Below are positions 4,086 to 57,172 of a DNA stretch of 64,000 nt, one piece after another. The notes below the pieces were generated by a model, which was not told where the DNA came from, ran no database searches, and worked only from the letters and a program-made list of their open reading frames with translations. Location: contig OY762492.1 in NCBI GenBank assembly GCA_963665845.2, positions 3,467,895 through 3,531,894 of the forward strand, given 5' to 3'. Origin of the DNA: Candidatus Poribacteria bacterium (GTDB taxonomy: Bacteria > Poribacteria > WGA-4E > GCA-2687025). The stretch's first letter is position 1. Each line of letters starts with the position of its first letter. Made by a program: the position numbers and the translations under genes.

Positions 4086-4308
4086 CTGACCTTACGTCTT
4101 AAGTTGGGACACGGCGGCGGGCGAACGCGGACGTCTTCTGAGGCGCCTCTAGATTCCCGCGCGTTTTACCGCAGGGGCGGGAATGCATGCCCTCGCGGGC
4201 ATGTCCTCGTGAAAACGGGGAAGCGGGGGACGCTCTGGTTGGCGAAGCCTTTTCCCATAAATAGAGCGATCGTCAGTTCAAATGTCCCAACTCTCGGCAT
4301 GAGGTCAG
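4086..4308 (-). mobile_element. MITE type II (TIR CTGACCTYAYGYYTAAGTTGGGACAT), reverse orientation, expanded internal hairpins
   Basis: CTGACCTTACGTCTTAAGTTGGGACAC at 4086- and AATGTCCCAACTCTCGGCATGAGGTCAG ending at 4308. The internal CGATCGCTCTATTTATGGGAAAAGG module is shared with the copies at 44889, 52372, 56776 and 63847. Confidence 0.7.
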
Positions 4309-10154: not shown

Positions 10155-13100
10155 GTGACGTACCCCCCCCCCCCCCCCCCCCCCCCCCGCGCTTGGTCCG
10201 CTGCTCTAGCGGCGGCGCTTCTCTGCGCATGGCTCGTTGCTGAAAACAGCAGCGCGCAACAGGTCCTGACAGGGCATACGGATGATGTCAGGTCCGTGGC
10301 GTATTCGCCGGACGGTCAGACGATCGCCAGCGGCAGCGCCGACGGCACAATCCGCATCTGGAATCCAGCGACGGGCGCGCATGTCCGAACGCTGGAAGAA
10401 AACGAAACCAGAGTTTTCGCTGTGGGCTATTCGCCGGACGGTCAGACGATCGCCAGCGGAAACTTCTACAACACGATAAGCGTCTGGAACGCTCAAACAG
10501 GCGCGCATCTCAAAACCCTGGAAGAGCGCGTGAACGGCGCGAGCGTCTGTAGAGTAGGCGACGTCCTACAGCCCGGAGACAGCTGCTATTATCCGGGAAC
10601 TGACATTGTGATTCGCGCTGAGGGCGGAAGCCTTATCATTGGAGGCGCATCCTTCTCTGGGGCAACCATAAATCTCCAGGGCGTTACCATCGGCGGCGTA
10701 CGCATCTCCATTACTGCCGTACGCGACGGAAATTCTTATAGAATTTCCGGAATTGCGAGCGCGTCCGCTGTCTACTCGGTGTCGTATTCGCCAGACGGAA
10801 CGCGAATTGTCAGCGGCGGCGGCGGCGGCAGCGGCGACGACACGATTCGGATCTGGAACGCCGAGACGGGCGAACTCATACGAACGCTTGAAGGGCATAC
10901 GGGTATTGTCTGGTCTGTGGCGTATTCACCGGACGGTCAGATGATCGCCAGCGGCAGCTGGGACGACATGATTCGGATCTGGAACGCCAACACGGGCGAA
11001 CTCATACGAACGCTTGAAGGGCATACAGATAATGTCTATTCTGTGATGTATTCACCGGACGGTCAGACGATCGCCAGCGGCAGCGCCGACGACACGATTC
11101 GGATCTGGAACGCCAACACGGGAGCGCACATACGAACCCTCCAAGGACATACGAATACAGTCCTTTCTGTCCTTTCTGTGGCATATTCGCCGGATGGTCA
11201 AACGATCGCCAGCGGCAGCGCCGACGACACGATTCGGATCTGGAACGCCAACACGGGAGCGCATCTACGAACCCTCCAGGGACATACGGATGTAGTCCTG
11301 TCCGTGGCCTATTCACCGGACGGTCAGACGATCGCCAGCGGCAGCTGGGACGACACGATCCGCCTCTGGGACATCAGCGACCTCGCCGCTCCTGTAGACC
11401 GCCCAACGGCGACCGTCTCCGGCCCGAGTGAGACGCAAACAGGCGCGTTCGATGTGACCATCGAGTTCAGCTCCGCCGTCACAGGTTTCGAGTCGTCCGA
11501 CATTGTTGTGACGAACGGCTCTGTGACCAATCTTGCCGGCAGCGGCGCATCCTACACGGCAACGATTCAACCGTCCAGCACAGGAGCCGTTACGGTGAGC
11601 GTCCCCGCCAACGCCGCGGGGAACAACACCGCTTCCAACACCTACTCTGTCAACGCTGAAACCGGAGGGCCGCAGGTCCTGACAGGGCATACGGATGATG
11701 TCTTTTCTGTGGCGTATTCTCCGGACGGTCAAACGATCGCCAGCGGCAGCAGGGACGACACGATCCGCATCTGGAACGCCAACACGGGAGCGCACATACG
11801 AACCCTCCAAGGACATACGAATATAGTCCTTTCTGTGGCATATTCGCCGGATGGTCAAACGATCGCCAGCGGCAGCGTCGACGCCACGATTCGGATCTGG
11901 AACGCCAACACGGGAGCGCATCTACGAACCCTCCAGGGACATACGCGTGTAGTCACATCCGTGGCCTATTCACCGAACGGTCAGACGCTTGCCAGCGGCG
12001 GCTTCGACAACACGGTTCGGATTTGGAACGCCAACACGGGAGCGCATCTACGAACCCTCCAGGGACATACGGATCAGGTATGGTCCGTGGCATATTCACC
12101 GGACAGTCAGATGATCGCCAGCGGCAGCGCCGACGCCACGATTCGGATCTGGAACGCCAACACGGGCGAACTCATACGAACGCTTGAAGGGCATACAGAT
12201 TATGTCTATTCTGTGATGTATTCACCGGACGGTCAGACGATCGCCAGCGGCAGCGTCGACGCCACGATTCGGATCTGGAACGCCAACACGGGAGCGCACA
12301 TACGAACCCTCCAAGGACATACGAATACAGTCCTTTCTGTGGCATATTCGCCGGATGGTCAAACGATCGCCAGCGGCAGCTGGGACGACATGATTCGGAT
12401 CTGGAACGCCAACACGGGAGCGCATCTACGAACCCTCCAGGGACATACGGATGGAGTCCTTTCTGTGGCGTATTCGCCGGATGGTCAGACGATCGCCAGC
12501 GGCAGTTACGACGATACGATACGCATCTGGGACATCAGCGACCTCGCCGCTCCTGTAGACGGCCCAACGGCGACCGTCTCCGGCCCGAGCGAGACGCAGA
12601 CAGGCGCGTTCGATGTGACCATCGAGTTCAGCTCCGCCGTCACAGGTTTCGAGTCGTCCGACATCGCTGTGACGAACGGCTCTGTGACCAATCTTGCCGG
12701 CAGCGGCGCAAGCTACACGGCGACGATTCAGCCGTCCAGCTTCGGAGCCTTTACCGTTACGGTGAGCGTTCCCGCCAACGCCGCGGGCAACAGAGCCTCC
12801 AACACCTACACGGTCAACGTTGAAATCGGAGCGCTGCGGGTCCTGACAGGACATACGGACCCGGTCTGGTCTGTGGCGTATTCGCCGGACGGTCAGACGA
12901 TCGCCAGCGGAAGCTCGGACGACACGATACGCATCTGGAACGCCAACACAGGGGAGCCTCTCAGAACCCTCCAGGGACATACGAGTACTGTCAGGTCTGT
13001 GGCGTATTCACCGGACGGTCAGTCGCTCGCCAGCGGCAGCTACGACAACACGATACGCATCTGGAACGCCAACACTGGCGCGCATCTACGAACCCTCCAG

Positions 13101-15491
13101 GGACATACGAATTGGGTCAGGTCTGTGGCATATTCTCCGGACGGTCTGACGATCGCCAGCGGCAGCAACGACAACACGGTTCGGATCTGGAACGCCAACA
13201 CTGGCGCGCATCTACGAACCCTCCAGGGACATACGGGTCAGGTCTGGTCCGTGGCGTATTCACCGGATGGTCAGACGATCGCCAGCGGCAGCGGCAGCGT
13301 CGACAACACGATACGCATCTGGGACGCGAACACGGGAGAGCATCTCCGAACCCTCCGAGGGCAGTCTTGGGTCACCTCTGTGGCATATTCGCCGGACGGT
13401 CAGACGCTCGCCAGCGGCAGCAGAGACCAAGCAAATCCAATTCGGGTCTGGGACGCGAACACGGGAGCGCATCTACGAACCCTCCATGGACATACGAATC
13501 CAATCCTTTCTGTAGCGTATTCACCTGACGGTCAGACGATCGCCAGCGGCAGCGGCGACGACACAATCCGCATCTGGAACGCCAACACAGGGGCGCATCT
13601 ACGAACCCTCCAGGGACATACGGGTACGGTATGGTCCGTGGCGTATTCGCCGGATGGTCAGACGATCGCCAGCGGCAGCTGGGATGAGACGATTCGGATC
13701 TGGGACATCAGCGACCTCGCCGCTCCTGTAGACCGCCCAACGGCGACCGTCTCCGGCCCGAGTGAGACGCAGACAGGCGCGTTCGATGTGACCATCGAGT
13801 TCAGCTCCGCCGTCACAGGTTTCGAGTCGTCCGACATTATTGTGACGAACGGCTCTGTGACCAATCTTGCCGGCAGCGGCGCAAGCTACACGGCAACGAT
13901 TCAACCGACAGGCGATGGCGCTGTTACGGTGAGCGTCCCCGCCAACGCCGCGGGCAACAACACCGCCTCTGACGCCTACTCTGTCAACTACGAACCGCCT
14001 TTGTTTGCGCATACGGGCGGCATTTTAGCGGCGGCGTATTCATCTGACGGAACCCGCATCGCCACCGCCTCCGCGGACGATACGGCGCTCATCTGGGATG
14101 CCGACGCGGAAACGCCGCTCCTTGAACTGACGGAGCATACGGTTGATGTCCGCTCCGCCGCCTTTTCGCCGGACGGAACCATGCTCGCCACCGGCAGCGC
14201 CGACGACACGATACGCCTCTGGAACGCTGAAACGGGCGCGCATATTCGAACGCTGGCGGGACACACGGGCGACGTCTATGCGCTAGACTATTCGCCGGAC
14301 GGCGCGACCATCGTCAGCGCAAGCGGCGACCGTACAGTTCGGCTCTGGAACGCCGAAACCGGGGAGCTTGTCAAGACGATGACGCAGCATGCGGGGGTTG
14401 TTCGGACAGCCGTCTTCTCTCCTGACGGAACGCTCATCGCCAGCGGCGGCGCCGACCGTACCGTGCGCCTCTGGAACGCGCAAACCGGCAAGCTTCTCTC
14501 CACGCTGAAAGAGCATGGGCGGACGATCTACTCGGTCGCCTTTTCACCCGACGGAACGGTTTTGGCAAGCGGCAGCGCCGACAAAACGATTCGTTTTTGG
14601 GATGTTTCGTCGCAGTCGCTTCTCCATACCCGTACGGTGGGCGGGTCTGCGGGTCTCGTGTTTTCGGTCGCCTTTTCGCCGGACGGTTCCACGCTCGCTT
14701 CCGGGAACGAGGATGGGACCGTCCATCTCTGGGCGTCCGGAAACGGCCGGCATAAAGAGACGCTAGAGGGACATACGGGAACCGTTTACGCGGTCGCCTA
14801 TTCGCCCGACGGTCAAACGCTCATCAGCGGAAGCCGCGACAAGACGCTGCGCTTCTGGTCAATGCCGAAGCCCAATCTCGATCTGAACGGCGACGGCGTC
14901 GTGGACGCGGCGGATCTGCAGATGGTCGCCAACAGCTACGGCGGCTCCGATCCGAACGCGGATGTGAACGGGGACGGCGTCGTGGATGTGAACGACGTTC
15001 TGCTGATCGCGGACGCCCTGGCGAACGCGCAGGCGGTCGCGGCGGCTCCGGCGTTGGCGTCGTTGCGGGAGGCGCCGTCCTTTCCGCAGGTGTCCAGCTG
15101 GCTGAACGACGCGAATGGGCTGATTGTCCGCAGCGATTCGGCAAAGCGGGGCATCGCCGTTTTGGAGGAGATGCTTCGGTCATCGCTGCCGGTTGTGTCC
15201 ACCAGCGCGCTTCTGCCGAACTACCCGAACCCGTTCAACCCAGAGACCTGGATCCCGTTTGAGTTGGCGGAAACGTCCCGCGTAAAGTTGACGATCTACA
15301 ACTCATCGGGTCAAACCGTGCGCGTGTTGGAGCTTGGGCAGTTGCCGGCGGGCGCCTACCGCAGCCGCGCCAAAGCCGCCCATTGGGACGGACGGAACAA
15401 TCTGGGCGAACCTGTCGCCAGCGGCATGTATTATGTCCGCATTGAGGCGGGGTCGTTCACGGCGCTGCGGCGCATGGTTGTGCTGAAGTAA
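10155..15491 (+). CDS. Giant secreted WD40-repeat protein with three Ig-like cassettes, dockerin-like repeats and a T9SS-type C-terminal sorting domain
   Basis: Dozens of WD40 blades ([35 protein letters not shown]). Three near-identical cassettes of about 95 aa starting [10 protein letters not shown] at nt 11370, 12531 and 13704. Dockerin/EF-hand-like [13 protein letters not shown]...[14 protein letters not shown]-terminal [19 protein letters not shown]...[10 protein letters not shown]...RMVVLK. The in-frame start as printed is GTG 10155; see the poly-C finding for the start problem. Confidence 0.85.
10163..10188 (+). repeat. Homopolymeric poly-C tract (26 nt) in the 5' end of the giant WD40 gene
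   Basis: Counted directly: an uninterrupted C run from 10163 to 10188. It encodes the Pro8 stretch of the track ORF. Confidence 0.95.
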
Positions 15492-21101: not shown

Positions 21102-22358
21102 TCAACCCTTTCTCTGACAGACAACGATGCATTCTTCATGCATCGTCGGCGCCGTTTTCCCGGCGATGTTTGCGGGGCTGTTCGTTTTCGGCATGCGCTT
21201 GTTCGGGATATTGCGGACGATCGTCTCTCGGTGGGCGAAGCCATGGCGTTCAAACGCGGCGGCGATGAATTCGTCTGTCCGCAGATATTCGCCTTTCACC
21301 CGGCGGTTTCCGACAACATAACAGACCGTCGACACGGGCTTCAGCGCCTTGGCGACCGCGGCGGCGCTGCGTTCCAGGTCGGCGTAAAACGCGGACGCTT
21401 CTCTCCCCCGTTTCTCGTCCTGCGCGCGAATCCTCTCAACCGCCGAGGCGACCGGCGAATCGGGGTCATGCGCCGCCTCTCCGACGCGCCCGCCCATGCT
21501 CATTTTGTCGACGCGCCGCGCCTCGGCGTATCCGATCCACTCCGACGCCAGCCGCGAAAATTGCCCGTACGCGACGGTCGTCTGCGAATCGCCGTACGGC
21601 GGCGAGGTCAGCGCGAGCGCATACCCGTTCGGCGGATGCGGCATCGGCAACTCGCCATGCGCCGTATTCGCGCTTGAAACATGCGCCTCCACCCGCTTTC
21701 GCTTCTGAAGATAGGCGGACATGCCCAGCCTGTTTCGGTACAGCTTTTTGCGGAAAACGTCAAAAACATCGGGGTTGAAAGTTTCCATCTTCGGCGCGGG
21801 GATGCGATGCAGTTTGAATTCGCCCGTCCGCGTGTATGAGCATTCTCGTACCGTTTCGGAAAAGGCGACCCAGAAAAAATCGCGGATCGAGTCATCCTCC
21901 TCGGCGCCGATTTCAGCCCGAAGAAACGCAAGCCTTTCGATCACATCGTCCGAGAACCAGTACTCAAGATTGAGTATGTCAGGGACGGGGCGTTCTGGGA
22001 CGTCTCCCGAAAAGCCGACCTTCAGCAGCCTTCCGCTCAAGCGGTCTAGACGCAAATCCAAGAGGGCGGGCGGAATCGGCGTCGTCTTGACGCGCGCGAT
22101 GAGCCGCGCCAGCGGGTTGATGTCGCACCCGACGCTATGCATTCCGAACAGCGACGCCTCCGCCAGCGATGTTCCTGTCCCGCAGTACGGATCCAGCAGC
22201 CATTCGCCCTCAACGCCGTACCGTTTCAGAAGCTCCCGCGCGATCTGCGGGATCATTCGGGCGGGGTAGTTGTGGAAGCAGTGCGTGTACTCTTTTGTGT
22301 TCGCCCCGCGGAAATCCCAGTCCGCCTCATGCGTCTTATTGATGGGCGTCCCTTTCAT
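21102..22358 (-). CDS. Site-specific DNA methyltransferase (N4-C/N6-A amino-MTase, motif I before SPPY)
   Basis: CFHNYPARMIPQIA, AdoMet motif I LLDPYCGTGTSLAEA and catalytic motif IV LTSPPYGD about 190 aa downstream. ATGA overlap with the upstream PhyH gene. I detect no adjacent restriction endonuclease. Confidence 0.75.
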   Translation of the reverse strand: MKGTPINKTHEADWDFRGANTKEYTHCFHNYPARMIPQIARELLKRYGVEGEWLLDPYCGTGTSLAEASLFGMHSVGCDINPLARLIARVKTTPIPPALLDLRLDRLSGRLLKVGFSGDVPERPVPDILNLEYWFSDDVIERLAFLRAEIGAEEDDSIRDFFWVAFSETVRECSYTRTGEFKLHRIPAPKMETFNPDVFDVFRKKLYRNRLGMSAYLQKRKRVEAHVSSANTAHGELPMPHPPNGYALALTSPPYGDSQTTVAYGQFSRLASEWIGYAEARRVDKMSMGGRVGEAAHDPDSPVASAVERIRAQDEKRGREASAFYADLERSAAAVAKALKPVSTVCYVVGNRRVKGEYLRTDEFIAAAFERHGFAHRETIVRNIPNKRMPKTNSPANIAGKTAPTMHEECIVVCQRKG

Positions 22359-23179
22359 TCACCCCAGAGGTCCAAACCCAGCAGTTTCCGTCCGAGCGGC
22401 GAGAGCGGCGCCGGTCCGTAATTCTCCGCTTCCCATCCGCGCGCGTCGCCGCGGAAGGAGCCGTGTCCAGAAGCGCGCCGTTCGCGCCACAACGCGACGC
22501 GCCCATCCCGCGCCGCCTCGCTCGGAGACTGCGGCGCCGGACTCTGGTTGATGTACTGCGCGATGCGCGGCTTGTCGGAGGTGTTGCGCCCGTTGCCGTG
22601 CGGCAAGGCGCGGTGCCAGATCAGCAGGTCGCCCTGATTTGCCGGTATTTGGTGAAACAGCCCTGGCTCCAGCTTCGGCGCAAACGGGTCTTTCTCCCGG
22701 ATCAGCGTCTTATGCGCCCCCGGCATGCAGACGAACGAGCCTTGATCGGAGGCGGTGTCGCGCAGAAACAGAACGCCCTGCGTCCCAAACCCCAGCGGCA
22801 GCTTCGTCACATCTGCGTCCCAGTGGTACATTCCCTTATGATCCCACTGCGGATGGTCGGGATGGCGCGGCGGTTTGAAATTGACGCGGTCAAGCGACGT
22901 CCACAGCTTCTCCGTTCCCCAAAGCTCCGAGAACGCCTGATGAATGCGCGGACTTTGCCGCGTCTGCCACATGGCGGGATGCTGATACATCTCCACCATG
23001 CCGGCGCCGGGGCGGTGCGGCGCTTTATACCAGTCGTTCGGATCGCTCGGGTCGAAGCCCAAGAAGCTGAAGACGGCGTCCACAACCGCTTCGCAATGCT
23101 TCTTCGGCGCCGCTTCGCGCACAATCACATACCCGTTTTCGTTAAAAAAGTCTCGGTCTTTTTGCGTCAAAACGCCCAT
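22355..23179 (-). CDS. Phytanoyl-CoA dioxygenase (PhyH) family Fe(II)/2OG oxygenase
   Basis: MGVLTQKDRDFFNENGYVIV..., HWDAD (HxD) and a distal H in LLIWHRALPHGNG. Start chosen at the ATG preceded by AAAGGAG. Confidence 0.75.
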   Translation of the reverse strand: MGVLTQKDRDFFNENGYVIVREAAPKKHCEAVVDAVFSFLGFDPSDPNDWYKAPHRPGAGMVEMYQHPAMWQTRQSPRIHQAFSELWGTEKLWTSLDRVNFKPPRHPDHPQWDHKGMYHWDADVTKLPLGFGTQGVLFLRDTASDQGSFVCMPGAHKTLIREKDPFAPKLEPGLFHQIPANQGDLLIWHRALPHGNGRNTSDKPRIAQYINQSPAPQSPSEAARDGRVALWRERRASGHGSFRGDARGWEAENYGPAPLSPLGRKLLGLDLWGE

Positions 23180-23210
23180 TTTCAACGCTCCTTTCATGGA
23201 GAATTGCGCC

Positions 23211-24185
23211 TTACCGGTCGCGGACAGCCAGCCCGCGCGCCAGATTTATCAGCGCTTCCTTGGCGCCGCTTTCGGGCAGCGCCTTCAAATGATCAATCGC
23301 CTGCTCCGTATAATCGGCAGCGGTCTTCAAAGCGTATTTTAACCCGCCCAACGCCTCGGCGCGCTGAACGATCCACTCCGTCTCTTCGGGCGAACGCTCA
23401 TCCGCCAGCATCAGTTCGCGCAGGCGGGCGCGTTCTTCGGGGCTGCAGTTGTCCCGAAAAAACATCGCCGGGAGCGTCATTTTGCCTTCGCGCAGGTCGT
23501 TGCGCGTCGGCTTGCCGAAAACGCTCTCCTCGCCGATCATGTCTAAGACATCGTCCATCACTTGAAACGCGATGCCGACCGCATGTCCGTAGGACGCCAG
23601 CGCCTCAACCGCGTCGGAACCCGCCGAGCCTTGCAGCGCGCCGATGCGGCATGAGCAGGACATCAACCGCGCCGTCTTCAGCTCTATCACCTTAAAGTAG
23701 TCGTCCAGCTCCAGTTCAAAGTCGCGCGCTTGGTAGGCGTGAATCACTTCGCCTTCGCACATGGACTGCGTCGCTTCGGCGACCGCCTCGTACACCTCTT
23801 CGTTCGCCTTGCATGCGACGAGTACGGCTAAAACGCGCGCATGCATATAGTCGCCGACCAGCACCGCCACCTTGTTGCCGAATTTGGCGTTCAGCGTTTC
23901 CTGTCCGCGGCGCATAGGCGATTCGTCGATCACATCGTCATGGGCGAGCGAGGCGATATGGATCAGCTCCATCGCGGCGGCGAGGTCGTACATGGCGCCG
24001 CCTGACGCGCCGGCGGCGCGCGCCGAAAGGAGCGTCAGTATCGGCCGCAGACGTTTTCCGCCGCCCTTGATGACATGTTGCGCCGCTTGATCGACAAACT
24101 CATAGACGTTCGCCGCCCGCTCCAAGAGGCGCCGCTCCACAATCTCAAGGTCGCTTTGGACGAATGCGTTCACCTTTTCAATCGA
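23211..24185 (-). CDS. Polyprenyl diphosphate synthase (IspB/HepT-like, trans-IPPS)
   Basis: Two Asp-rich motifs ([10 protein letters not shown] and FQVMDDVLD). Start taken at [15 protein letters not shown], which overlaps the hemL stop by 8 nt. The longer Arg/Lys-rich N-terminus in the track ORF is unlikely to be real. Confidence 0.85.
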
Positions 24186-25494
24186 CATGCGCGCCGCCCG
24201 CTTCAACCTCTTCAACCGCTTCTTTGAACGCTTTCTCGGTCGCTTCGATTTCCGCCGCCGTATGCGCTGTTGAAACAAAAAACGCCTCAAACTGCGCGGG
24301 AGGCAGGTAGACGCCGCGGTTCAACATGGCGCGGTGAAAGCGTCCAAACTTCTCCGTGTCGCACGCGAGCGCGCCGTCATAATCGGTTACAGGTCCTTCG
24401 CCAAAAAAGACGCACAGCATGGAGCCGACGCGCGCCGTGTAAAACGGACCCGCCGCCTCTGAAAGCGCGCGTCGAATGGCCGCCTCTAATTGCGCGCCGA
24501 GCGTTTCAAGCCGTTCATAGACGCCCGGTTTTTTCAACTCGGTCAACGCGGCAATGCCCGCCGCCGCCGCCAGCGGATTTCCGGACAGCGTCCCCGCCTG
24601 ATAGACCGGACCGGTCGGCGCGACGACCGCCATGATGTCGGCGCGCCCGCCGTATGCCCCAACAGGCAAACCGCCGCCGACAATCTTGCCGAGACAGGTC
24701 ATGTCGGGGGAGACGCCGTAACGCTCCTGCGCGCCGCCGTAAGCGAGGCGAAAGCCGGTCATCACCTCGTCAAAGATGAGCAGCGCGCCATGTTTCGTTG
24801 TCAATTCGCGCAGCGCCTCTAGATACCCTTCCGCCGGCGGAACCAGCCCCATATTGCCGGCGGCAGGCTCCAAGATGACGCAGGCGACTTCGTCCGGATG
24901 TTCCGACATGGCGCGGTCGACCGCATCGGCGTCGTTGAACGGAACGATGAGCGTATGTTTGGCAAAATCGGCGGGGACGCCCGCGCTGGTCGGCGTTCCA
25001 AAGGTGGTCGCGCCGGAGCCTGCTTTCACCAACAGATAGTCGGCATGTCCATGGTAGCAGCCGGCGGCTTTGACAATCATATCGCGCCCGGTGAAGCCGC
25101 GCGCCGCGCGTATCGCGCTCATCGTCGCCTCGGTGCCTGAATTGACGAGGCGTACGCGGTCCATGGACGGGTACGCTTCGAGGATCATCGCCGCCAGCCG
25201 CGTTTCGTATTCGCCGCAGGTTCCAAAGCTGGTTCCGCGCTTCAACGCTTCGCCGACCGCCGCTTCAATGGACGGATGCGCGTGTCCTAAAATGAGGGGA
25301 CCCCATGAGGCAACATAGTCGATATATCGGTTTCCGTCGGCGTCCATGAGATGCGGCCCGGCGCCGCGCTCCATAAAGACCGGGTCGCCTTGGACGGCTT
25401 GAAAGGCGCGGACGGGGCTGTTGACGCCGCCTGGCATCGTTTGCTGCGCCTCCGCCCACAACTCCGCCGACCGACTCCGTTTGCGATTCGGCAT
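24178..25494 (-). CDS. hemL: Glutamate-1-semialdehyde 2,1-aminomutase
   Basis: 438 aa. [24 protein letters not shown] and FDEVMTGFR are characteristic of HemL. Confidence 0.95.
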
Positions 25495-25669
25495 CGCTCC
25501 AACGCTCCTGCCCTACAACTGCGATCGCTAATAAGCATACCATACCAGATTGCGCTCTGAATAGAAAGCGCAACTCTTCGACGGCGGTACGCTGATGCGG
25601 TAAAACGCGCGGGAATCCAGAGGCGCCGTAGAAACCATCCGCGTTCACCTGATGTCAAGAAAACGCGGT

Positions 25670-25697
25670 TTGACAACCCCCCAGCATCGTGTATAAT
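25670..25697 (+). promoter_or_regulatory. Near-consensus sigma70-type promoter upstream of the TPR-PIN-PIN islet
   Basis: TTGACA (25670-25675), a 16-nt spacer ending in TG, then TATAAT (25692-25697). It lies about 50 nt upstream of GGAG plus the ATG at 25747. Confidence 0.5.
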
Positions 25698-25746
25698 AAT
25701 CTGACAGCGCGGCATAGCGCCGCATCGGTTGCGATTGGAGCGAAGC

Positions 25747-27753
25747 ATGGCTGAACGAAGCGAAATTCAGAGCGATCGATTTTTAGCGCATCTTACATCG
25801 CAGAGCATTGTTGCGGACAGTGAATCCATCTTTCAGGGCGGTTTTCAACAACCGCAAATCATGGCGTTTTCAGTAGAATCTAACAGTCCCCTATTCACCT
25901 CGCTCAATGAGGCTGTTGATCAAACACGGACTTCCTCTGATCAATCGAAAGGCTCCGGCGGCGCCGTTGAAGCGCAGCCTAAAGATCGGTCGGCTGCTCT
26001 GAACGAAATTGCAGATCCGAAACTTCGCGGAGCTCTGAATAGAGCGTTGAAATCGCAAGACGAAGCGGACGAAAAAGGCGTCAATAAAAAAACGCGCTAC
26101 AGATTGCTGATGCAAGCAGTCGGGAACTACAGTGACGCTTTGGATTTGATGGCGCGACAGAACGAAGGCGAAAAAGACGTTGCGTTGGAATCGGCTATTC
26201 ATAATGGCATTGGCGTCGCTTACGGGATTATTGGCCGTTCAGATGACGCAATTGACAGATTTGGCAAAGCCATCAAGATTGATCCCGACAATGCGATTGC
26301 CCACTACAATTATGGCGTCGTTTGCATACAGAGCGGGAAGATTGACGCGGACGCATATCATAGCCTGGGCGTCGGTTCCATGTTACGCGGCAACGCCGAC
26401 GAAGGCGTAAAAAATCTCAAAAAAGCGATTGATCTAGGCTCTAAGAACTCTGACACATTTTTGTATTTGGCTACCTATTATACACAAATTGGCGATCTTG
26501 ATCAAACTATAGCCTATCTTAAAAAAGCCGTTAATATTAGTCCAAAAGATGCAAAATTATATCACAGGTTAGGCATTGCGTATGGAGAATCGAAAAATCC
26601 GAACAAAGCAATTGAAAATTTTGAAATAGCCGTCAAAATTAATCCAAATGATGCGGGAATTTACTATAGTCTGGGTGTTGCTTACAGTCTGGTAGGCAAT
26701 CGCAAGAAAGCGATTGAATATGGACATATGTCTATTGATCTCAATCCTGATTTTGCTGACGCTCTCTTTAACCTAGGGAATGAATACATAAGGGAAAGAG
26801 AATTCGATACCGCAATAAAATATCTCAAAAGGGCTATTGAAAAAGGTCCTCGCCGCATAGACGCTTATATGAACCTGAGCTATGCGTATGAGAAAAGCAA
26901 CAGATCTGAGGATGCAATTGAATGTTGCCTTAAGGCGCTTGCGATCAACCCCGAAAACATCGTTGCGCATCATAACCTAGGTATTGCGTATGCGAGAGCC
27001 GACAACCTTGAAGCCGCCCTTGAAAGCAGTCTTCAAGCGATCCGAATGAAACCCGACTTCGCCGCCGCATATATGGGGCGCAGTTTCATCTATCTTATAA
27101 AAAGAGAACAGGACGAGGCAGCAGGTCAGCAGGACGAGGCAGCAGATCAGATGAATGAGGCAGCGGAAGACTTCGCTGTCGCGCTGTCGCTCAATCCAGA
27201 GCGGTATCAGGAGTATGCCGACATATTTGCTGATGTTCTGCGGAAGATCGAAGAAGATGAAGCGCCCTGGAACGAGCTGCGCGCCGCGCTCATCCAGGCG
27301 CAGTCGGACGCGGAGCATGAACAGCCGGAGGGATGGACGACTCTCCTCAATAGCGCGTTGGAGGCGGTCGACAAGCTCGCCCCGCTGCGAAAAGACATAC
27401 GCCGCCTCAACCGCGCGGCGAAATATTTGGCGGTAGAAGAATGCCGCGATGTCCGGACAGAGCTTGGATATGTCCTGAACGAGGCGCTGGATCGATTAGG
27501 CTCTCTAGCGGCGTTTCAGCGCGAGACGGCGCGGCATGCGCTTTCGATGGAAGCGTCGGGAGAAGAAAAAGATGGCTTTGCGGCGGCGCTGCTCCGGCTC
27601 AATCGGTCGCTGGACGCCATAAAGATTGAGGAGGTCAACGATGATTTTCTGAAAATTCGGGCAGATAATTCGATGCAAACCCTCCGCTATCTGCAGACCC
27701 GTATCAAAACGGGCGGGCGAAAGTTCACATGGGAAGAAGCGAATGAGCGTTGA
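25747..27753 (+). CDS. Large TPR-repeat protein with a non-TPR helical C-terminal region
   Basis: About 10 canonical TPR units (AIAHYNYGVV..., AKLYHRLGIAYGESKNPNKAIENFEIAVKINPNDAGIYYSLGVAY..., ADALFNLGNEY...). ATG at 25747 after GGAG. Its G+C is markedly lower than that of the flanking genes. Confidence 0.8.
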   Translation: MAERSEIQSDRFLAHLTSQSIVADSESIFQGGFQQPQIMAFSVESNSPLFTSLNEAVDQTRTSSDQSKGSGGAVEAQPKDRSAALNEIADPKLRGALNRALKSQDEADEKGVNKKTRYRLLMQAVGNYSDALDLMARQNEGEKDVALESAIHNGIGVAYGIIGRSDDAIDRFGKAIKIDPDNAIAHYNYGVVCIQSGKIDADAYHSLGVGSMLRGNADEGVKNLKKAIDLGSKNSDTFLYLATYYTQIGDLDQTIAYLKKAVNISPKDAKLYHRLGIAYGESKNPNKAIENFEIAVKINPNDAGIYYSLGVAYSLVGNRKKAIEYGHMSIDLNPDFADALFNLGNEYIREREFDTAIKYLKRAIEKGPRRIDAYMNLSYAYEKSNRSEDAIECCLKALAINPENIVAHHNLGIAYARADNLEAALESSLQAIRMKPDFAAAYMGRSFIYLIKREQDEAAGQQDEAADQMNEAAEDFAVALSLNPERYQEYADIFADVLRKIEEDEAPWNELRAALIQAQSDAEHEQPEGWTTLLNSALEAVDKLAPLRKDIRRLNRAAKYLAVEECRDVRTELGYVLNEALDRLGSLAAFQRETARHALSMEASGEEKDGFAAALLRLNRSLDAIKIEEVNDDFLKIRADNSMQTLRYLQTRIKTGGRKFTWEEANER

Positions 27754-28207
27754 TGCGTTTATCGATACAAACGTCGTACTATACAAGTATGACCATAAGG
27801 ATGCGTCTAAACAAAGAAAGGCGGACCGTCTCATCAAAAGCGCGGTCGAAAATAAAGACGCGTGCATCAACTATCAGGTCGTTCAGGAGACGCTGGCTGT
27901 TCTGTCGGGCGGAAAATTCAGAGCGCCTCTTAGAGAGCTGGAAGCGGAGCTGCGGGATACGTTGTTGCCGCTCTGGACGGCAAACCCTGCGCAAAATGCG
28001 ACGCCGACCCCAGACCTCTACCGCCGCGCCGCCGCTGTCATGGACAAGAGCGGCTACAGCTTTTATGACAGCGTTGTCATCGCCGGCGCTCTTGAAGCAG
28101 GCTGCAAAACGCTTTACACCGAAGATATGGAGGACGGACATCAACTCGAATCTGTAACGATTGTCAACCCGTTCAAAGAAGAGGAGAACGCGCATTCCAA
28201 ATCCTGA
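27743..28207 (+). CDS. PIN-domain ribonuclease (VapC-like), acidic residues intact
   Basis: MSVDAFIDTNVV (Asp1), VVQETL (Glu), SFYDSVVIAGA (Asp3) and LYTEDMED (Asp4). The start overlaps the TPR gene end by 11 nt. Confidence 0.75.
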   Translation: MSVDAFIDTNVVLYKYDHKDASKQRKADRLIKSAVENKDACINYQVVQETLAVLSGGKFRAPLRELEAELRDTLLPLWTANPAQNATPTPDLYRRAAAVMDKSGYSFYDSVVIAGALEAGCKTLYTEDMEDGHQLESVTIVNPFKEEENAHSKS

Positions 28208-28271
28208 GAATGAAAAGAGCGCTAATCAAGGAGAACCGCCGCCCAAAGACGCGCCGATAAAGATCGAGTAC

Positions 28272-28691
28272 ATGATCGGCCCCGATGTCGTCGCAGCCGC
28301 CTTTGACGATACGAACGGCAGGAGGCGTGGAATAGCGGAACAAATCATACAACGGGCGCTCAGCAACCAAAGCGGATGCGTCAGTTTCCAAGTCGTTCAA
28401 GAAACCCTCAACTGGCTTGACAAGAAACAAACGTTGCATCCAAGAGATCGCAACACTTATATGGAGACCGAGCTGATTCCCCTTTGGACGCAAAATCCTG
28501 TTTGGCAGAACCAGCCGACGCTGGACACATATCTGCGCGCTTTACAGATCCAAGACGCATACCAGCTGCATTTCTACGCTGGACTTCTTGTGAGCGGCGT
28601 CATCGATGCAGGATGCCAAACGCTTTACTCGGGGATGTACGATTCTCGGCAGAAAATCGAGGGAGTGGACATCGTCAACCCGTTCAACTAA
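28272..28691 (+). CDS. Degenerate PIN-domain paralog (predicted catalytically inactive); start uncertain (TTG 28161 to ATG 28272)
   Basis: It aligns with the upstream PIN (FDDTNG, VVQETL, LIPLWTQNP, IDAGCQTLY, VDIVNPF). The third Asp is replaced (HFYAGLL versus SFYDSVV), TEDM is replaced by SGMY, and there is a deletion after DTN. Confidence 0.6.
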   Translation: MIGPDVVAAAFDDTNGRRRGIAEQIIQRALSNQSGCVSFQVVQETLNWLDKKQTLHPRDRNTYMETELIPLWTQNPVWQNQPTLDTYLRALQIQDAYQLHFYAGLLVSGVIDAGCQTLYSGMYDSRQKIEGVDIVNPFN

Positions 28692-28864
28692 AGAGGATGG
28701 GGCATGCTTGGTCAGAGCGTCGGCATTCGCAAGCCTCATGTCAATCTTTTCAATCTTGGAAATCCTAGTTCAGACCACAAACGCGGCGCCTAAGATTCCC
28801 GCGCGTTTTACCTCAAGGGAGGAAACGACTTGCGCCGCCGCCCCGAAACATAGACAATGCGCCT

Positions 28865-29998
28865 ATGTCAAAGGCGCGCAGCGAACGCAAACGGCAGGAT
28901 GAGCAATGGATGGCGCGCGCGCTGGAGCTTGCCCAAAGCGCGGCGCGGCGAACCTCCCCCAACCCGATGGTCGGCGCTGTCGTCGTCCAGAACGGGCGCG
29001 CTGTCGGCGAGGGGTTCCATCGAGGCCCTGGACATCCGCACGCCGAAGCGGAAGCGCTGAAACAGGCGCAGGAAAAAGCCGACGGCGCCGCGCTCTATGT
29101 GAACCTAGAACCATGCGCCCATGAAGGGCGAACGCCGCCATGCGCTGATCAGCTGGTCGAATGCGGCGTCGCGCGCGTCGTCTCCGCCATCGAAGACCCT
29201 GACGAGCGGGTGTCGGGGCGCGGACATGCGCGCCTGCGGGCGGCGGGCATACGGGTTGAAATCGGGCTGATGGCGGAAGAAGCGCGCCGCCTCAACGCCC
29301 CGTACCTAAAATGGAAACGGCGCGGCGTCCCGTTCGTCACGCTCAAAATGGCGATGAGCCTAGACGGCAAAACGGCGACCGGGACAGGCGAATCGAAGTG
29401 GATCACCTCGGAGGCGGCGCGCCTGGACGGCAGGCGTCTGCGCGTCTCGCATGACGCGATACTGATCGGAGTCGGTACCGCCCTCGCGGACGATCCGCAT
29501 CTCACCGCCCGCCTCCCCGACAGCGGCGCCGATCAAGACCCGCTCCGCGTTGTCGCGGACACGCATGCGCGCCTCCCGCCGACCGCGCGCATGTTTCAAA
29601 ACCGCGGCGGTAAAACGATCCTCGCCGTCGGCGAGACGGCTCCTGTCAGCCGCGTCCGCGCGTTGGAGTCGGCGGGGGCGGAGGTATGGCGCCTGCCGCT
29701 TTTGGAGGGGCGCGTCTGCCTTGAGTCGCTGCTTCGGCGCCTGGGCGAAGCGGGCGCGCTGAGCGTTCTGGCGGAGGGCGGCTCCGCGCTGCATGGAAGC
29801 CTCGCGCGCGGTCGGCTGGCGGACAGGGTCGCCGCTTACATCGCCCCGATCATCATCGGCGGAGAAGGGCTGCCGGCGGTCGGGGACGCCCAGCTCAACC
29901 GCCTCTCCGACGCCCTGCGCATACGCGACTGGACAACGACCCGCATCCCGCCGGACATACGCATCGACGGGTATATTGAAGAAGCGGACAGCGAATAG
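28865..29998 (+). CDS. ribD: Bifunctional riboflavin biosynthesis deaminase/reductase
   Basis: Deaminase zinc motif HAEAEAL...PCAHEGRTPPC. Reductase half VTLKMAMSLDGK...GGSALHGSL. Confidence 0.9.
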   Translation: MSKARSERKRQDEQWMARALELAQSAARRTSPNPMVGAVVVQNGRAVGEGFHRGPGHPHAEAEALKQAQEKADGAALYVNLEPCAHEGRTPPCADQLVECGVARVVSAIEDPDERVSGRGHARLRAAGIRVEIGLMAEEARRLNAPYLKWKRRGVPFVTLKMAMSLDGKTATGTGESKWITSEAARLDGRRLRVSHDAILIGVGTALADDPHLTARLPDSGADQDPLRVVADTHARLPPTARMFQNRGGKTILAVGETAPVSRVRALESAGAEVWRLPLLEGRVCLESLLRRLGEAGALSVLAEGGSALHGSLARGRLADRVAAYIAPIIIGGEGLPAVGDAQLNRLSDALRIRDWTTTRIPPDIRIDGYIEEADSE

Positions 29999-30029
29999 CG
30001 CGGTTGACGAACCAGAAAGCGTCCGCGCC

Positions 30030-30270
30030 ACAATTCGTCATTCCCGCGCAAGCGGGAATCCAGAGGCGCCGCTGACGACGTCCGCATTCCCCGAAACCGT
30101 CATCCTACCAAACGTCATTCCCGCGCAAGCGGGAATCCAGAGGCGCCGCAGACGGCATCCGCATTCGACGTCATTCCCGCGCAAGCGGGAATCTTAAGGC
30201 ATCGCCGCCGCTCCCGTCCTTTTAAACCCCCCTAACCCCCCTTTCAAGGGGGAATCCAGAGGCGCCGCAT
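30030..30270. repeat. Array of three ATTCCC-N8-GGGAAT hairpin units plus one C/G-rich hairpin (NIME-like mosaic)
   Basis: ATTCCCGCGCAAGCGGGAAT at 30040-30059, 30117-30136 and 30173-30192. Each has the conserved flanks GTC...CCAGAGGCGCCGC. AAACCCCCCTAACCCCCCTTTCAAGGGGGAATCCAGAGG at about 30224-30262. Confidence 0.85.
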
Positions 30271-30297
30271 TCGCCGAAACCGTCATTCTACCCGCTG

Positions 30298-31434
30298 TCA
30301 TTTCTGCACAGCGTCTATCAGCCTGTTGATTTCCTCTTCGTTGTTAAAAAGCGCCGCGGAGACGCGAATCCCATCAATCTCCTCCACATACCGTACGCGG
30401 ATGCGCTCCTGTTCGTACAGCTCCGCCGCAAGCGTCTCGCCTGAAACGCCCTCGACCGAAAAGGAGGTCATCGCGCATGAATGCTCCCATGCGTCAGGCG
30501 TGTGGAGGCGGACATTCGGCGCCGTTTTCAGCCCCTCTTTCAGCATGCCGGTCAACGCGCGCATACGGCGCCATGCGTTCTCAAAACCGACCTGATCCCA
30601 CCATTCAAACAGCGGCTCAAAGCCCGCATAACGCCCGCAGCCGCGCGTTCCGCATTCAAACCGCCGCGCGGAGCGGTCCAGCGTCAGTCTGTCCGCCGCC
30701 TCGTCGTAAATGCCCGAACCCATGCCCACCTGCGTCGGCGTCAGCGCGTCCATCAGCGCGGGGCGTATGCGCAGATAGCCCGTGCCTTTCGGTCCGAGTA
30801 GCCACTTATGCCCGTTGCCCGCGTAGATGTCCGCTTCCTCCGCCGCCTCCTGTATCGGCATTTGCCCCGCCGCCTGCGCGCCGTCGATGAGCGACAGGAC
30901 GCCGCGCTCTCGACAGCGGCGCGCCATCTCGGCGGCGGGCGCCCGCTTGCCCGTGACGCAGCTGACATGGCTGAACGCCGCGAGGCGCGTTTTAGGGGTA
31001 AAGGCGGCTTCGAGAGCGTCCAGCGTTTCTTCAGGCGTGTTGCCAAAACGAAAACGGCGGACCGACACGGCGTTTTCTCCCGCGGAACGCTGCGCCAAAA
31101 ACGCCCATGGAAACAGCAGCGCCGCATGTTCCTCGTCCGAGATCAGTACCTCTCCGCCGCCGCTCCAGTCAAGCCCATGGGCGGCGGCGTTGATGCCTTC
31201 GGTGGCGTTGCGCGTGAAGGCGACCTCGTCCGCGGAGACGCCCAAAAACGCCGCCAGACGCGCCCGCCCCCGTTCAAGCCGTTCAAGAGAGGCGGTCCAC
31301 TCCACCTCTCCGCCCAGTTCAAACGCGCGGACGGACTCCTCCGTCTTCTCGGCGACCGACAGCGGACACAGCCCCGCCGCGCCTACGTTTAAATACGCGC
31401 ACCGTTCTAACAGCGGAAACTCGCCCCGTATCAC
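30298..31434 (-). CDS. Aminotransferase class V-fold PLP-dependent enzyme (cysteine desulfurase/epimerase-like)
   Basis: 378 aa with class V pattern (TRNATEGIN, SHVSCVTG, GNGHKWLLGPKGTGYL carrying the PLP lysine). GTG start overlapping the upstream stop (GTGA). Confidence 0.75.
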   Translation of the reverse strand: MIRGEFPLLERCAYLNVGAAGLCPLSVAEKTEESVRAFELGGEVEWTASLERLERGRARLAAFLGVSADEVAFTRNATEGINAAAHGLDWSGGGEVLISDEEHAALLFPWAFLAQRSAGENAVSVRRFRFGNTPEETLDALEAAFTPKTRLAAFSHVSCVTGKRAPAAEMARRCRERGVLSLIDGAQAAGQMPIQEAAEEADIYAGNGHKWLLGPKGTGYLRIRPALMDALTPTQVGMGSGIYDEAADRLTLDRSARRFECGTRGCGRYAGFEPLFEWWDQVGFENAWRRMRALTGMLKEGLKTAPNVRLHTPDAWEHSCAMTSFSVEGVSGETLAAELYEQERIRVRYVEEIDGIRVSAALFNNEEEINRLIDAVQK

Positions 31435-32434: not shown

Positions 32435-33532
32435 ATGCGATTCACTGCGGCTTTCCAGACAGCCGTTTTGGCCGTCGCGCTGCTGTCGGCTTATTCCGCG
32501 GCGGCGCAGCTGCCGTCGCCCAAAGAGAATGTGCTGCGGCTTGAGAGGCCGACGATCGTTTACAAAGCCAACGAGGCATACGAGCTGCGCCTCATCGACT
32601 GGGACGGACAGAACGACAGGTTGTGGATGACCGACTCGCGCAAGCGAATGCGCTTTCTAGCAGGCGTCGAATGGTCGCCGGACGGCAGGCGCGCGGCCAT
32701 TGCCGGATTTTACGGAGGAGGAAATTACGCGGTCAATGTTCTCAACCTGTCCACAAACCAAGTCGATATTGTGACGAAGCCTTTTGAAGGCAAGATCGTC
32801 CTCAACTCCCCTGCATGGTCTAGAGACGGCCGTTCGCTGCTTCTTGCAGGCTTTCCGTTGCCTCCAGGAGGTTTCTGGTCAGATATTTACAAGCTGGATC
32901 TATCGTCGGGGCGTCTGAAAAATCTGACAAACGCGCGCGACAACCTCAATCAATTTCCTTCATGGTCGCCTGTTGAGGATAAGATTTTGTTTCGCTCGAA
33001 GATCCCTGGTGAGGACAACCATGACATCTATGTGATGAACGCGGACGGCAGCGGCGCCGTTCGCTTCGTTGATCCGAGTTATGAGAATGCTCCCGCATGG
33101 TCTCCCGATGGCAAGCGGATCGCGTGGTCGTCCACCCGCGGCTCCAAATTTCCCGACTACAACATCTTTGTGATGAACGCGGACGGTTCGAACAAGGAGC
33201 CGCTGACAACCAGCCCGAACTATGATTACGCTCCGAGGTGGTCGCCGTGCGGAAAATGGCTCGTCTATTGTTCAAGAGAATGGGTTGACGGCGCCGTATG
33301 GAATGTGTACCGCGTTCATGTGGAGACAAAGGAGGTTGTTCAGCTGACGGTCAATGGGGGGCGCGACCCGCGGTGGGTCTTGGCGGGCAAGAGCCGCTTC
33401 CTCTCTGTCGACCCAGCGGATAAAAAAAAGGCGCCATGGGGCAAGATAAAAGAAGCGGAGGCTCAAGATTCCCGCGCGCTTTACCGCAAGGGCGGGAATG
33501 ACGGTCTGGCTTGCGAAGCCTTTTTTCCATGA
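32435..33532 (+). CDS. Secreted TolB-like PD40 beta-propeller protein
   Basis: ATG at 32435 after GAGAGG. Signal peptide MRFTAAFQTAVLAVALLSAYSAAAQ. Repeated PD40 motifs (WSPDGRRAA, PAWSRDGRSL, PSWSPVEDKI, DIYVMNADGSG, PAWSPDGKRIA, NIFVMNADGSN, PRWSPCGKWL). The last ~25 codons and the stop lie inside a MITE fragment. Confidence 0.8.
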   Translation: MRFTAAFQTAVLAVALLSAYSAAAQLPSPKENVLRLERPTIVYKANEAYELRLIDWDGQNDRLWMTDSRKRMRFLAGVEWSPDGRRAAIAGFYGGGNYAVNVLNLSTNQVDIVTKPFEGKIVLNSPAWSRDGRSLLLAGFPLPPGGFWSDIYKLDLSSGRLKNLTNARDNLNQFPSWSPVEDKILFRSKIPGEDNHDIYVMNADGSGAVRFVDPSYENAPAWSPDGKRIAWSSTRGSKFPDYNIFVMNADGSNKEPLTTSPNYDYAPRWSPCGKWLVYCSREWVDGAVWNVYRVHVETKEVVQLTVNGGRDPRWVLAGKSRFLSVDPADKKKAPWGKIKEAEAQDSRALYRKGGNDGLACEAFFP

Positions 33533-44721: not shown

Positions 44722-44881
44722 GGCAGTACGCTCATGCGATGGACTTCATTTTGACCTTAAAGCGTTGGCGCCGCTTGTCGTCATTCCCGCCCTTGCGATA
44801 AAACGTGCGGGAATCTAGAGGCGTTTCAGAAGACGTCCGCATTCGCCAGGCGGAATGTCCCAACTAAAGATGTGATGTCGG
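44722..44881. repeat. Chimeric mosaic element (IS1-type IR at the left, type II TIR at the right)
   Basis: GGCAGTACGCTCATGCGATGG at 44722-. Long-loop hairpin CATTCCCGCCCTTGCGATAAAACGTGCGGGAATC. It ends in GGAATGTCCCAACTAAAGATGTGATGTCGG. The layout is the same as 35974-36120 plus 37665-37749, and inverted it matches 9741-9982. Confidence 0.65.
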
Positions 44882-56943: not shown

Positions 56944-57172
56944 ATTCTCCCCTTGAAAAGGGGGTTAGGGGGGTTTAGCGCCTGCGGTAAAGCGCGCGGG
57001 AATCCAGAGGCGTCGCAGACGACGTTCGCGTTCGCCCGTCATGCCCGCGCCCGGGAGGCGTCATTTATATAATGACTCCCGCATAAGCGGGAATCTAGAG
57101 GCGCCGCAAGAGACGTCTCGCGTCCGCTATCAGATTTGTCTCAAATCTATGGGCAGGCTCAGAGAAATCCCA

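Follow-up and report, generated by a model that had tools for sequence, protein, structure and literature searches.

The window analysed here is a 64,000-nucleotide (nt) stretch of the Candidatus Poribacteria contig OY762492.1 (GenBank assembly GCA_963665845.2, positions 3,467,895 to 3,531,894 of the forward strand), in which an islet of three co-oriented genes lies between hemL (24178–25494, minus strand) and ribD (28865–29998, plus strand). The first islet gene (25747–27753, plus strand) encodes a tetratricopeptide repeat (TPR) protein of 668 amino acids (aa). The second (PIN1, 27743–28207, plus strand) encodes a 154-aa VapC-like PIN-domain protein whose start overlaps the TPR stop by 11 nt, and the third (PIN2, 28272–28691, plus strand) a catalytically degenerate PIN paralog of 139 aa. 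An earlier note on this DNA had described the same three genes and the same overlap, and the open reading frames (ORFs) confirm them. We consider it likely that the islet is a type II toxin–antitoxin operon of the VapBC type with a remodelled antitoxin, because the antitoxin tail is conserved and the coupling to the PIN gene is the same 11-nt overlap as in canonical pairs.

Upstream of the TPR gene is a sigma-70-type promoter (TTGACA-16 nt-TATAAT, 25670–25697, plus strand), which had been called near-consensus and matches at 12 of 12 positions, the sole 12/12 match in the region. A Shine-Dalgarno sequence (GGAG, 25737–25740, plus strand), kept in paralogs, precedes the ATG at 25747 by 6 nt, and the 668-aa product read from this ATG is already present as an exact sequence in a database record. 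The spacing between PIN1 and PIN2 is 64 nt, with no terminator-like site in the gap, and the two genes are probably co-transcribed. A search of Rfam over positions 24000–31000 returned nothing, hence no riboswitch or small RNA that would account for the islet.

Pfam and NCBIfam detect TPR motifs alone in the TPR protein (seven TPR_1 stretches in Pfam, bearing out its earlier naming), with no significant match and no DNA-binding fold in its C-terminal 205 aa. The C-terminal 34 residues (…RYLQTRIKTGGRKFTWEEANER), however, share homology with the tail in which the small antitoxins of the PIN1 family end. This tail (…KIRADNSMQTLRYLQTRIKTGGRKFTWEEANER, 27649–27750, plus strand), recognised by BLASTP and by profile–profile comparison, is the predicted PIN1-binding and neutralising segment. 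The final 30 residues (ADNSMQTLRYLQTRIKTGGRKFTWEEANER) are 50% identical to the tails of 74-aa antitoxins (BLASTP E 2e-6 and 5e-7), and an hhalign comparison of 20 canonical antitoxins with the helical-domain family to which the C-terminal part of the TPR protein belongs gave a probability of 97.7% (E 1.9e-12, 34 columns).

Canonical pairs, found in Dehalococcoidia, Acidobacteriota, Rubrobacter and Proteobacteria, consist of a ~74-aa antitoxin followed by a ~140-aa PIN with an overlap of 11 or 14 nt. The antitoxin combines a ribbon-helix-helix (RHH)-like N-terminus (MKNITLSADExLIEAAR…) with a C-terminus ending in …TGGRKFTRDEMNER. A true RHH identity for this N-terminus was considered and rejected, as the matches were sub-threshold only (DUF6364, E 0.006; CopG/AvtR chains, E 0.4–0.6), and the term RHH-like is used instead. 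The overlap is 11 nt in 16 of the 23 canonical pairs, as it is between the TPR gene and PIN1 (27743/27753). Plasmid-encoded PINs with 37–40% identity to PIN1 also follow their antitoxins with an 11-nt overlap, and these antitoxins carry other N-termini: one is AbrB/MazE-type and ends in …GFKFDRLEANER, the other is unannotated and ends in …GFKFDREEANAR. In a scan of GTDB genomes the matches were solely canonical short antitoxins, via the tail.

Since its tail is homologous to the tails of the family's antitoxins, the TPR protein would be the cognate antitoxin of PIN1. VapB antitoxins combine a toxin-binding tail with interchangeable N-terminal domains, and the occurrence of the same tail on RHH-like, AbrB, unannotated and TPR proteins therefore points to an ancient PIN-binding module that can be moved from one such domain to another. 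The earlier note had reported that no antitoxin was present and had suggested a non-canonical toxin–antitoxin system. There is indeed no separate VapB or RHH gene, but the canonical antitoxin tail is the C-terminus of the TPR protein, and the tail homology together with the shared overlap argues for a VapBC derivative rather than a non-canonical system. Its further suggestion that the TPR protein inhibits the active PIN is likely to be right, by way of the tail homology.

A homologous tail was also observed on a protein of a different kind. In a Dehalococcoidia metagenome-assembled genome (CBDBBO010000001.1, locus L020, 1977–5165) a type III Res-like helicase/endonuclease of 1062 aa (PF04851, PF19778) carries it, in frame, at its C-terminus (…RELRAAIATGGRKFTRDEMNER), a Mod-like methyltransferase (MTase) lies ~1 kb downstream, and there is no adjacent PIN ORF. 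This may be a second capture of the tail by a large protein, or a deletion scar. The tail (…GGRKFTRDEMNER) can serve as a search tag for other proteins that captured the PIN1 family.

PIN1 matches PF01850 (E 9e-10) and belongs to a family with more than 1000 matches of ~140 aa; no PIN1 relative was found in phage records. The only solved PIN1 homolog by sequence is PcrIIC1 (E 7.5e-7). Five acidic residues, D8, E49, D109, E127 and D128 in PIN1 numbering, are invariant in 27 of 27 relatives (23 canonical PINs, three paralogs and PcrIIC1), and PIN1 keeps all of them, including the acidic positions listed in the earlier note. From this set, PIN1 is predicted to be an active Mg2+-dependent VapC-like endoribonuclease.

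Between the TPR array and the tail of the TPR protein is a helical-bundle domain (27259–27648, plus strand), which also forms the body of stand-alone antitoxins. Helical domain and tail (~165 residues before the stop) occur as stand-alone proteins of 176–181 aa with an overlapping PIN next to them, and five such paralogs are present on the window's own 3.95-Mb contig. The poribacterial homologs P0131–P0139 show 54–80% identity to the 205-aa C-terminal query, as aligned for each match. Throughout the family the pattern is a ~130-aa helical domain (PWNELRAALIQ…EECRDVR…SGEEKxGF), an IKTGGR(K/T)FT tail and an overlapping PIN downstream, and the islet follows it. A hidden Markov model search of 1.84 billion representative proteins placed the helical domain in only four clusters, and scans of Joint Genome Institute (JGI) metagenomes for this domain and for PIN2 gave no confirmed relative; the helical domain therefore appears to be specific to the Poribacteria lineage. 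The AlphaFold2 (AF2) model of the domain is a long all-helical bundle (predicted local distance difference test score, pLDDT, of 82). A fold assignment was attempted and abandoned, as Foldseek yielded generic helical bundles only (E ≥ 0.03) and no PDB fold match at E < 0.01.

The 5′ end of the TPR gene belongs to the same family. Over the promoter, 5′ untranslated region (UTR), Shine-Dalgarno sequence and first six codons (M-A/T-E-R-S-E/G) it aligns with AT176, a stand-alone antitoxin gene at locus L046 from a sister strain, and over the promoter, 5′ UTR and first codons also with the TPR308 gene of another lineage (L045). After codon ~6 the stand-alone protein continues directly into PWNELRAALIQ…, whereas the window protein has ~500 extra residues before that motif. 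Because promoter, 5′ UTR and start codons match those of stand-alone antitoxin genes, the TPR array would be an insertion into a pre-existing antitoxin gene, not a separate upstream gene, and the helical bundle would stand in for the small N-terminal domain of the wider family. The islet backbone (promoter, 5′ UTR, first codons, helical domain, tail and PIN) thus looks like a member of a family that is multi-copy in the same genome.

Stand-alone modules were observed in two further settings. At L046 (6001–9047) three helical-antitoxin/PIN modules stand in tandem, each with an overlapping PIN, and the middle antitoxin is broken into ORFs of 37 and 98 aa. At L052 (298–8115) a single module lies between a ResIII-type gene and an N6_N4 methyltransferase gene, with a TIR gene adjacent.

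The TPR array itself (26185–27135, plus strand; Pfam TPR_1 and related matches) comprises about nine repeats, is low in G+C (0.44) and is hypervariable. We compared the window with L004, a locus from another metagenome with the same hemL…ribD context. Nucleotide identity is 98–100% over ~350 nt upstream (25401–25700) and 95–100% over ~27300–28800, which covers the helical domain, tail, PIN1 and PIN2; blastn blocks beyond these show 96% on the hemL side and 98% on the ribD side. Taken by themselves, the helical domain, PIN1 and PIN2 of the two strains agree to 99–100%. Between ~25800 and 27250, in contrast, identity falls to 27–86% with insertions and deletions. Synonymous divergence (dS) ranges from 0.6 to saturated in the repeats and is exactly zero over the last 168 codons, and the ratio of non-synonymous to synonymous divergence (dN/dS, omega) is 0.17–0.30 within the TPR repeats and 1.2, on few sites, in the pre-TPR region (aa 85–150). 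As dS is saturated in the TPR segment while the flanks and the 3′ part are near-identical, the segment appears to have been replaced by recombination, as an allele or cassette swap, and not by mutation in place.

This segment also accounts for the base composition of the islet. The G+C counts on 60-nt lines given in the earlier note (20/60 at 26461–26520, 25/60 at 27781–27840, and 34/60 at 24241–24300 within hemL) are exact, and the lowest 400-nt G+C of the whole window, 0.36, is found at 26401 (window mean 0.596, standard deviation 0.046). The dip is therefore real, but it is confined essentially to the TPR-repeat segment, as the helical domain (0.57) and PIN1 and PIN2 (0.52–0.53) do not share it and the PIN composition of the islet equals that of paralogous PINs in modules elsewhere. 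A similar qualification applies to the proposed horizontal acquisition: only the TPR segment looks foreign or swapped, and the backbone belongs to the family that this genome holds in several copies.

TPR-fused antitoxins of other lengths (295, 307, 308 and 637 aa) were found in related lineages, so that fusions of 295–668 aa are known from no fewer than three lineages and two genomic contexts. Around the loci L001 and L002 lie fragments of TPR genes and repeat families at 102-nt spacing, and several 46-aa ORFs there (noted at 3111–3251 and 9031–9171) repeat the 5′ end of the TPR-antitoxin gene; these repeats and ORFs suggest cassette-like shuffling of TPR sequence. The same loci also encode, at 5110–7041, another TPR protein, of 505 or 432 aa, and a different, tRNA-fMet-VapC-like PIN (136 aa) whose gene begins 4 nt after it; the tail of this TPR protein (…SAAGSWKGLIDGEKLIREIYEARK…) had no family match. 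In the window, an in-frame 21-nt tandem duplication (CAGGACGAGGCAGCAG[G/A]TCAG; QDEAAGQ/QDEAADQ) is located at the junction of the TPR and helical parts (27109–27150), a duplicated stretch not present in L004, L045, P0129 or P0130.

The third gene, PIN2, is 34% identical to PIN1 (E 9e-33) with an ungapped N-terminus, as expected of the paralog it had been taken for. It has no Pfam match, and its best matches outside the narrow lineage are ordinary PF01850 PINs at 38–41% identity. The AF2 model (pLDDT 88.7) finds PcrIIC1 as its top fold match (template modelling score 0.73–0.76), followed by VapC toxins, and by homology and predicted fold PIN2 would belong to the PIN superfamily. The invariant D8, D109 and D128 are replaced in all three lineages in which PIN2 was found, which read G8, E49 and A109, with GM at positions 127–128 in the window and L003, and EK in L045. 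The structural motifs VVQETL, IPLW, AGCQTLY and IVNPF are all kept in the three lineages. The earlier call of a catalytically degenerate PIN is borne out, and PIN2, which has no catalytically competent acidic set, is a predicted pseudo-nuclease. The deletion after DTN described previously was a misalignment: in BLAST and MAFFT the PIN2 segment MIGPDVV aligns gaplessly with FIDTNVV of PIN1, the first catalytic Asp being replaced by Gly, and a deletion appeared because the FDDTN of PIN2 was aligned with the catalytic IDTN instead of the family's FDETD motif, which lies 10 residues downstream of it.

PIN2 is maintained under purifying selection. Its ORF is intact and in frame in five of five contigs, and in pairwise comparisons of the window, L003 and L045 dN/dS is 0.28–0.37 for PIN2, 0.38–0.59 for PIN1 and 0.37–0.49 for the helical domain; between the window and L003, PIN2 has 12 changes at 91 synonymous sites and 13 at 326 non-synonymous sites. 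The possibility that PIN2 is a pseudogene, raised by 76-aa gene calls in relatives, was rejected, as these are gene-caller artefacts and the DNA is intact in the five contigs. We prefer the ATG at 28272 over an alternative in-frame TTG at 28161 as the start, because the 37-codon upstream extension, open in all lineages, is poorly conserved as protein in L045; the apparent ancestral start codon, five codons before this ATG, now reads ATA. PIN2 adjoins every TPR-fused antitoxin with readable downstream DNA (the window, L004, L001/L002/L003 and L045), and is not present in the four stand-alone modules seen (three at L046, one at L052). The TPR-PIN-PIN trio exists outside the window as well, at L004, L001/L002/L003 and L045.

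The module family keeps defence-island company. Neighbours of its relatives include Mrr/ResIII helicases, type III-like Res and Mod genes, and HNH-MTase, TIR and FRG genes, and helical-antitoxin/PIN modules are recurrently associated with type III-like restriction-modification and defence genes. In one other lineage FRG, HNH-MTase and Mrr-ResIII genes surround the trio, and a second TPR-VapC pair is its neighbour. A search against PADLOC-DB 2.0 gave no match for PIN1 or PIN2 and only generic TPR-repeat matches for the TPR protein, in agreement with the earlier expectation that the module is not a catalogued defence system. No cas9 was found among the 23 window ORFs scanned (the three islet genes, ten neighbours and ten of the largest others, from 85 ORFs of at least 150 aa), and no CRISPR-array search was made.

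The surroundings of the islet differ between strains on one side. A block of hemL, polyprenyl synthase, PhyH and methyltransferase genes (window 21102–25494) is conserved among Poribacteria strains (L047–L049). On the promoter side of hemL, depending on the strain, are GmrSD and LVIVD genes, an HNH-MTase gene, or the TPR-PIN-PIN trio with ribD, and this side looks like a strain-variable hotspot. The islet is also flanked by a 22-nt inverted repeat pair, 95% complementary, with a left copy at 25596–25617 (plus strand) and a right copy at 28794–28815 (minus strand). We considered whether these are terminal inverted repeats of a mobile element and rejected this. The motif is a dispersed palindromic repeat (GTCATTCCCGCGCAAGCGGGAATCCAGAGGCGCCG / GGTAAAACGCGCGGGAATC) resembling repetitive extragenic palindromic (REP) sequences, and because it has six copies in the window (19-mer core, against 0.06 expected) the flanking repeats are not element-specific. 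Repeat positions are 25596–25646, 28794–28815, 30036–30196, 4152–4170, 33467–33485, 44797–44815 and 56986–57004, and a related unit is triplicated in tandem downstream of ribD. Elsewhere the window encodes a 1778-aa protein in which WD40 repeats take up almost the whole length (10155–15491) and, upstream of an AcrB-type transporter, a PDZ-TPR-HlyD fusion (4386–6605).

Other explanations of the islet were weighed against a remodelled VapBC operon. It could be an ordinary addiction or selfish module, with the TPR array a neutral passenger from illegitimate recombination and PIN2 the inactivated toxin left behind when a tandem module lost its antitoxin by deletion. The lineage does contain tandem antitoxin–PIN arrays, one with a broken antitoxin, the TPR fragments and 102-nt repeat families at poribacterial loci would favour recombination, and the ancestral ATG of PIN2 has apparently mutated to ATA. 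However, a leftover gene does not fit with a PIN2 that is intact in all five contigs, under constraint as strong as its active partners, and marked by the same three catalytic losses in three lineages with every structural motif kept; nor does a neutral passenger fit with TPR-fused antitoxins that persist across lineages and contexts. We judge this explanation unlikely.

A role for PIN2 as activator is very unlikely. In such an arrangement the toxin would be a heterodimer in which PIN2, together with PIN1, completes a composite site for RNA binding or catalysis, as documented for SMG5 and SMG6, where a degenerate PIN activates an active one by PIN–PIN contact (PMC12923823). The selective maintenance of PIN2 and its co-inheritance with PIN1 would suit this role, but canonical relatives of PIN1 work without a partner and the catalytic set of PIN1 is complete.

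Even less probable is that the dead PIN2 is the true PIN1 inhibitor, a pseudo-toxin acting as antitoxin, with the TPR protein merely accessory. Although PIN domains dimerise, and PIN2 has kept its fold under purifying selection and always follows PIN1 in this lineage, the homologous tail sits at the canonical place on the upstream, translationally coupled gene, and paralogous modules neutralise their PIN without any PIN2. Furthermore, an inhibitor encoded downstream of its toxin, without translational coupling, is atypical for type II modules. The earlier suggestion that the dead PIN is an inhibitor is in itself neither supported nor excluded by a gene that is under purifying selection and seen only beside TPR-fused antitoxins. 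Finally, although TPR and other eukaryote-like repeat proteins such as WD40 are typical of and abundant in sponge symbionts such as this bacterium, and the window holds the WD40 protein and the TPR-PDZ-HlyD fusion, it is extremely improbable that the TPR protein is a symbiosis factor functionally unrelated to the following PIN genes, as its gene overlaps PIN1 by 11 nt, bears the antitoxin tail and shares promoter and start with stand-alone antitoxin paralogs, and its N-terminus (MAERSEIQSDRFLAHL…) has, by eye, no hydrophobic signal sequence.

For the remodelled VapBC operon we propose the following mechanism. Transcription would start at the consensus sigma-70 promoter, and translation of PIN1 would be coupled to that of the TPR-antitoxin gene by the 11-nt overlap. 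The tail RYLQTRIKTGGRKFTWEEANER would lie over the active site of PIN1, probably with an Arg or Lys reaching into the acidic pocket, as in solved VapBC complexes. The mode of inhibition is taken over from those complexes, a PDB search with the tail having given nothing relevant, and by this analogy we hold with high confidence that the tail would cap the active site of PIN1 in the manner of a VapB tail. The RHH-like or AbrB N-terminal domain of the family, presumed to bind DNA, would be replaced by the helical bundle and the TPR array, and with moderate confidence the operon would no longer be autoregulated through a DNA-binding antitoxin domain, allowing that the helical bundle itself could still bind DNA.

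Beyond this core the proposals are more tentative. Because the array is swapped wholesale between otherwise identical strains, we put forward as possible, though far from assured, that it is a ligand-binding specificity or sensor module that modulates PIN1 neutralisation; a protein ligand, phage-encoded or other, bound to the array would then alter that neutralisation. For PIN2 the likeliest role, though still a doubtful one, is that it pairs with PIN1 in a heterodimer with a single active site, which one bulky antitoxin could cap; it may instead have another regulatory role. A combined scheme, in which the TPR array is a swappable receptor for a phage or foreign protein whose binding frees or moves the tail and unleashes a PIN1–PIN2 RNase, with the dead PIN2 binding substrate or limiting the complex to one cappable site, is quite unlikely as a whole.

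Several observations weigh against these proposals. The co-occurrence of PIN2 with TPR fusions comprises only three independent lineages, and with three acidic residues gone PIN2 may or may not bind the tail. The TPR divergence reflects old alleles that have recombined, and as positive selection is not demonstrated a sensor role is no more than suggestive. A comparison of the tail with the PDB, including the C-terminal helix of Cas9, gave nothing relevant, and part of the constraint on the conserved final five tail residues comes from the start codon of PIN1, which overlaps them, although the GGRKFT of the tail lies upstream of the overlap. The immediate neighbours in the window, hemL and ribD, are housekeeping genes.

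Type II antitoxins usually consist of a small DNA-binding domain and a toxin-binding tail. Here the tail is conserved, and the rest appears to have been rebuilt into a large protein-interaction scaffold that is exchanged between strains with otherwise identical modules. Should the TPR array sense a ligand, such an architecture would couple a VapC toxin to a molecular trigger in a simple and evolvable manner, and would bear on the question of how toxin–antitoxin modules turn into phage-defence systems. The co-inherited and maintained dead PIN is a bacterial case of a pseudo-nuclease paralog beside its active sibling. Were the swappable-receptor scheme true, the islet would represent a bacterial, defence-oriented counterpart of the SMG5–SMG6 composite PIN, and an antitoxin turned into a modular sensor by insertion of a repeat array. 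We found no paper on a TPR-fused VapB-type antitoxin or on a dead-PIN third gene, which is not proof of absence, and a classification of the PIN superfamily does not mention TPR.

Among known systems are toxin–antitoxin or defence systems coupled to a sensor, and STAND/Avs-type NTPases, which can carry TPR sensor domains; the islet resembles these in joining a variable helical-repeat domain to a toxic effector module and in the defence-island company of its relatives. It differs in having no NTPase, in carrying the TPR array on the antitoxin and not on the effector, and in PINs that match no PADLOC model. Tripartite toxin–antitoxin systems, such as TAC with its SecB-like chaperone and HipBST, are likewise three-gene operons whose third product should modulate the toxin–antitoxin pair; the third component of the islet, however, is a dead toxin paralog, neither chaperone nor regulator nor part of a split toxin.

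Two systems offer precedents for parts of the mechanism. In nonsense-mediated decay the degenerate PIN of SMG5 completes the PIN of SMG6, and both proteins also carry helical-repeat domains (PMC12923823), a pairing of an active PIN with a catalytically degraded paralog as in the islet. That system is eukaryotic, with homology only at the level of the PIN superfamily, and the likeness to the islet is only an analogy. PcrIIC1 is described in PMC13153721 as a PIN-domain "pro-CRISPR" accessory of type II-C Cas9 (PDB 8wmm; Zhang et al. 2024, cited there) that docks onto the C-terminal helix of Cas9. It shares the IDTN, SEDM and IVNPF motifs, and its docking on the C-terminal helix of a large partner is comparable to a tail presented by the large TPR protein. 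Unlike this pair, the islet has no cas9 among the 23 scanned ORFs (no CRISPR-array search was made) and a tail without detectable sequence similarity to anything in the PDB, and PcrIIC1 enhances its partner and is not neutralised by it. With these precedents, docking of the tail and a PIN1–PIN2 contact are reasonable, not proven.

The closest likeness is to VapBC itself. A PIN whose acidic site is complete forms the toxin, the antitoxin gene lies upstream and is translationally coupled, and the antitoxin tail is homologous to those of canonical members of a family whose N-terminal domain (RHH-like or AbrB) is swappable. In contrast to VapBC, the islet antitoxin has 668 aa instead of ~75 aa, with a TPR array and a helical bundle and no recognisable DNA-binding domain, and the operon adds a third, conserved and catalytically dead PIN gene. 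Judged by sequence, the module would descend from VapBC and work in the same way, having lost one defining feature, the DNA-binding antitoxin domain, and gained a third conserved component.

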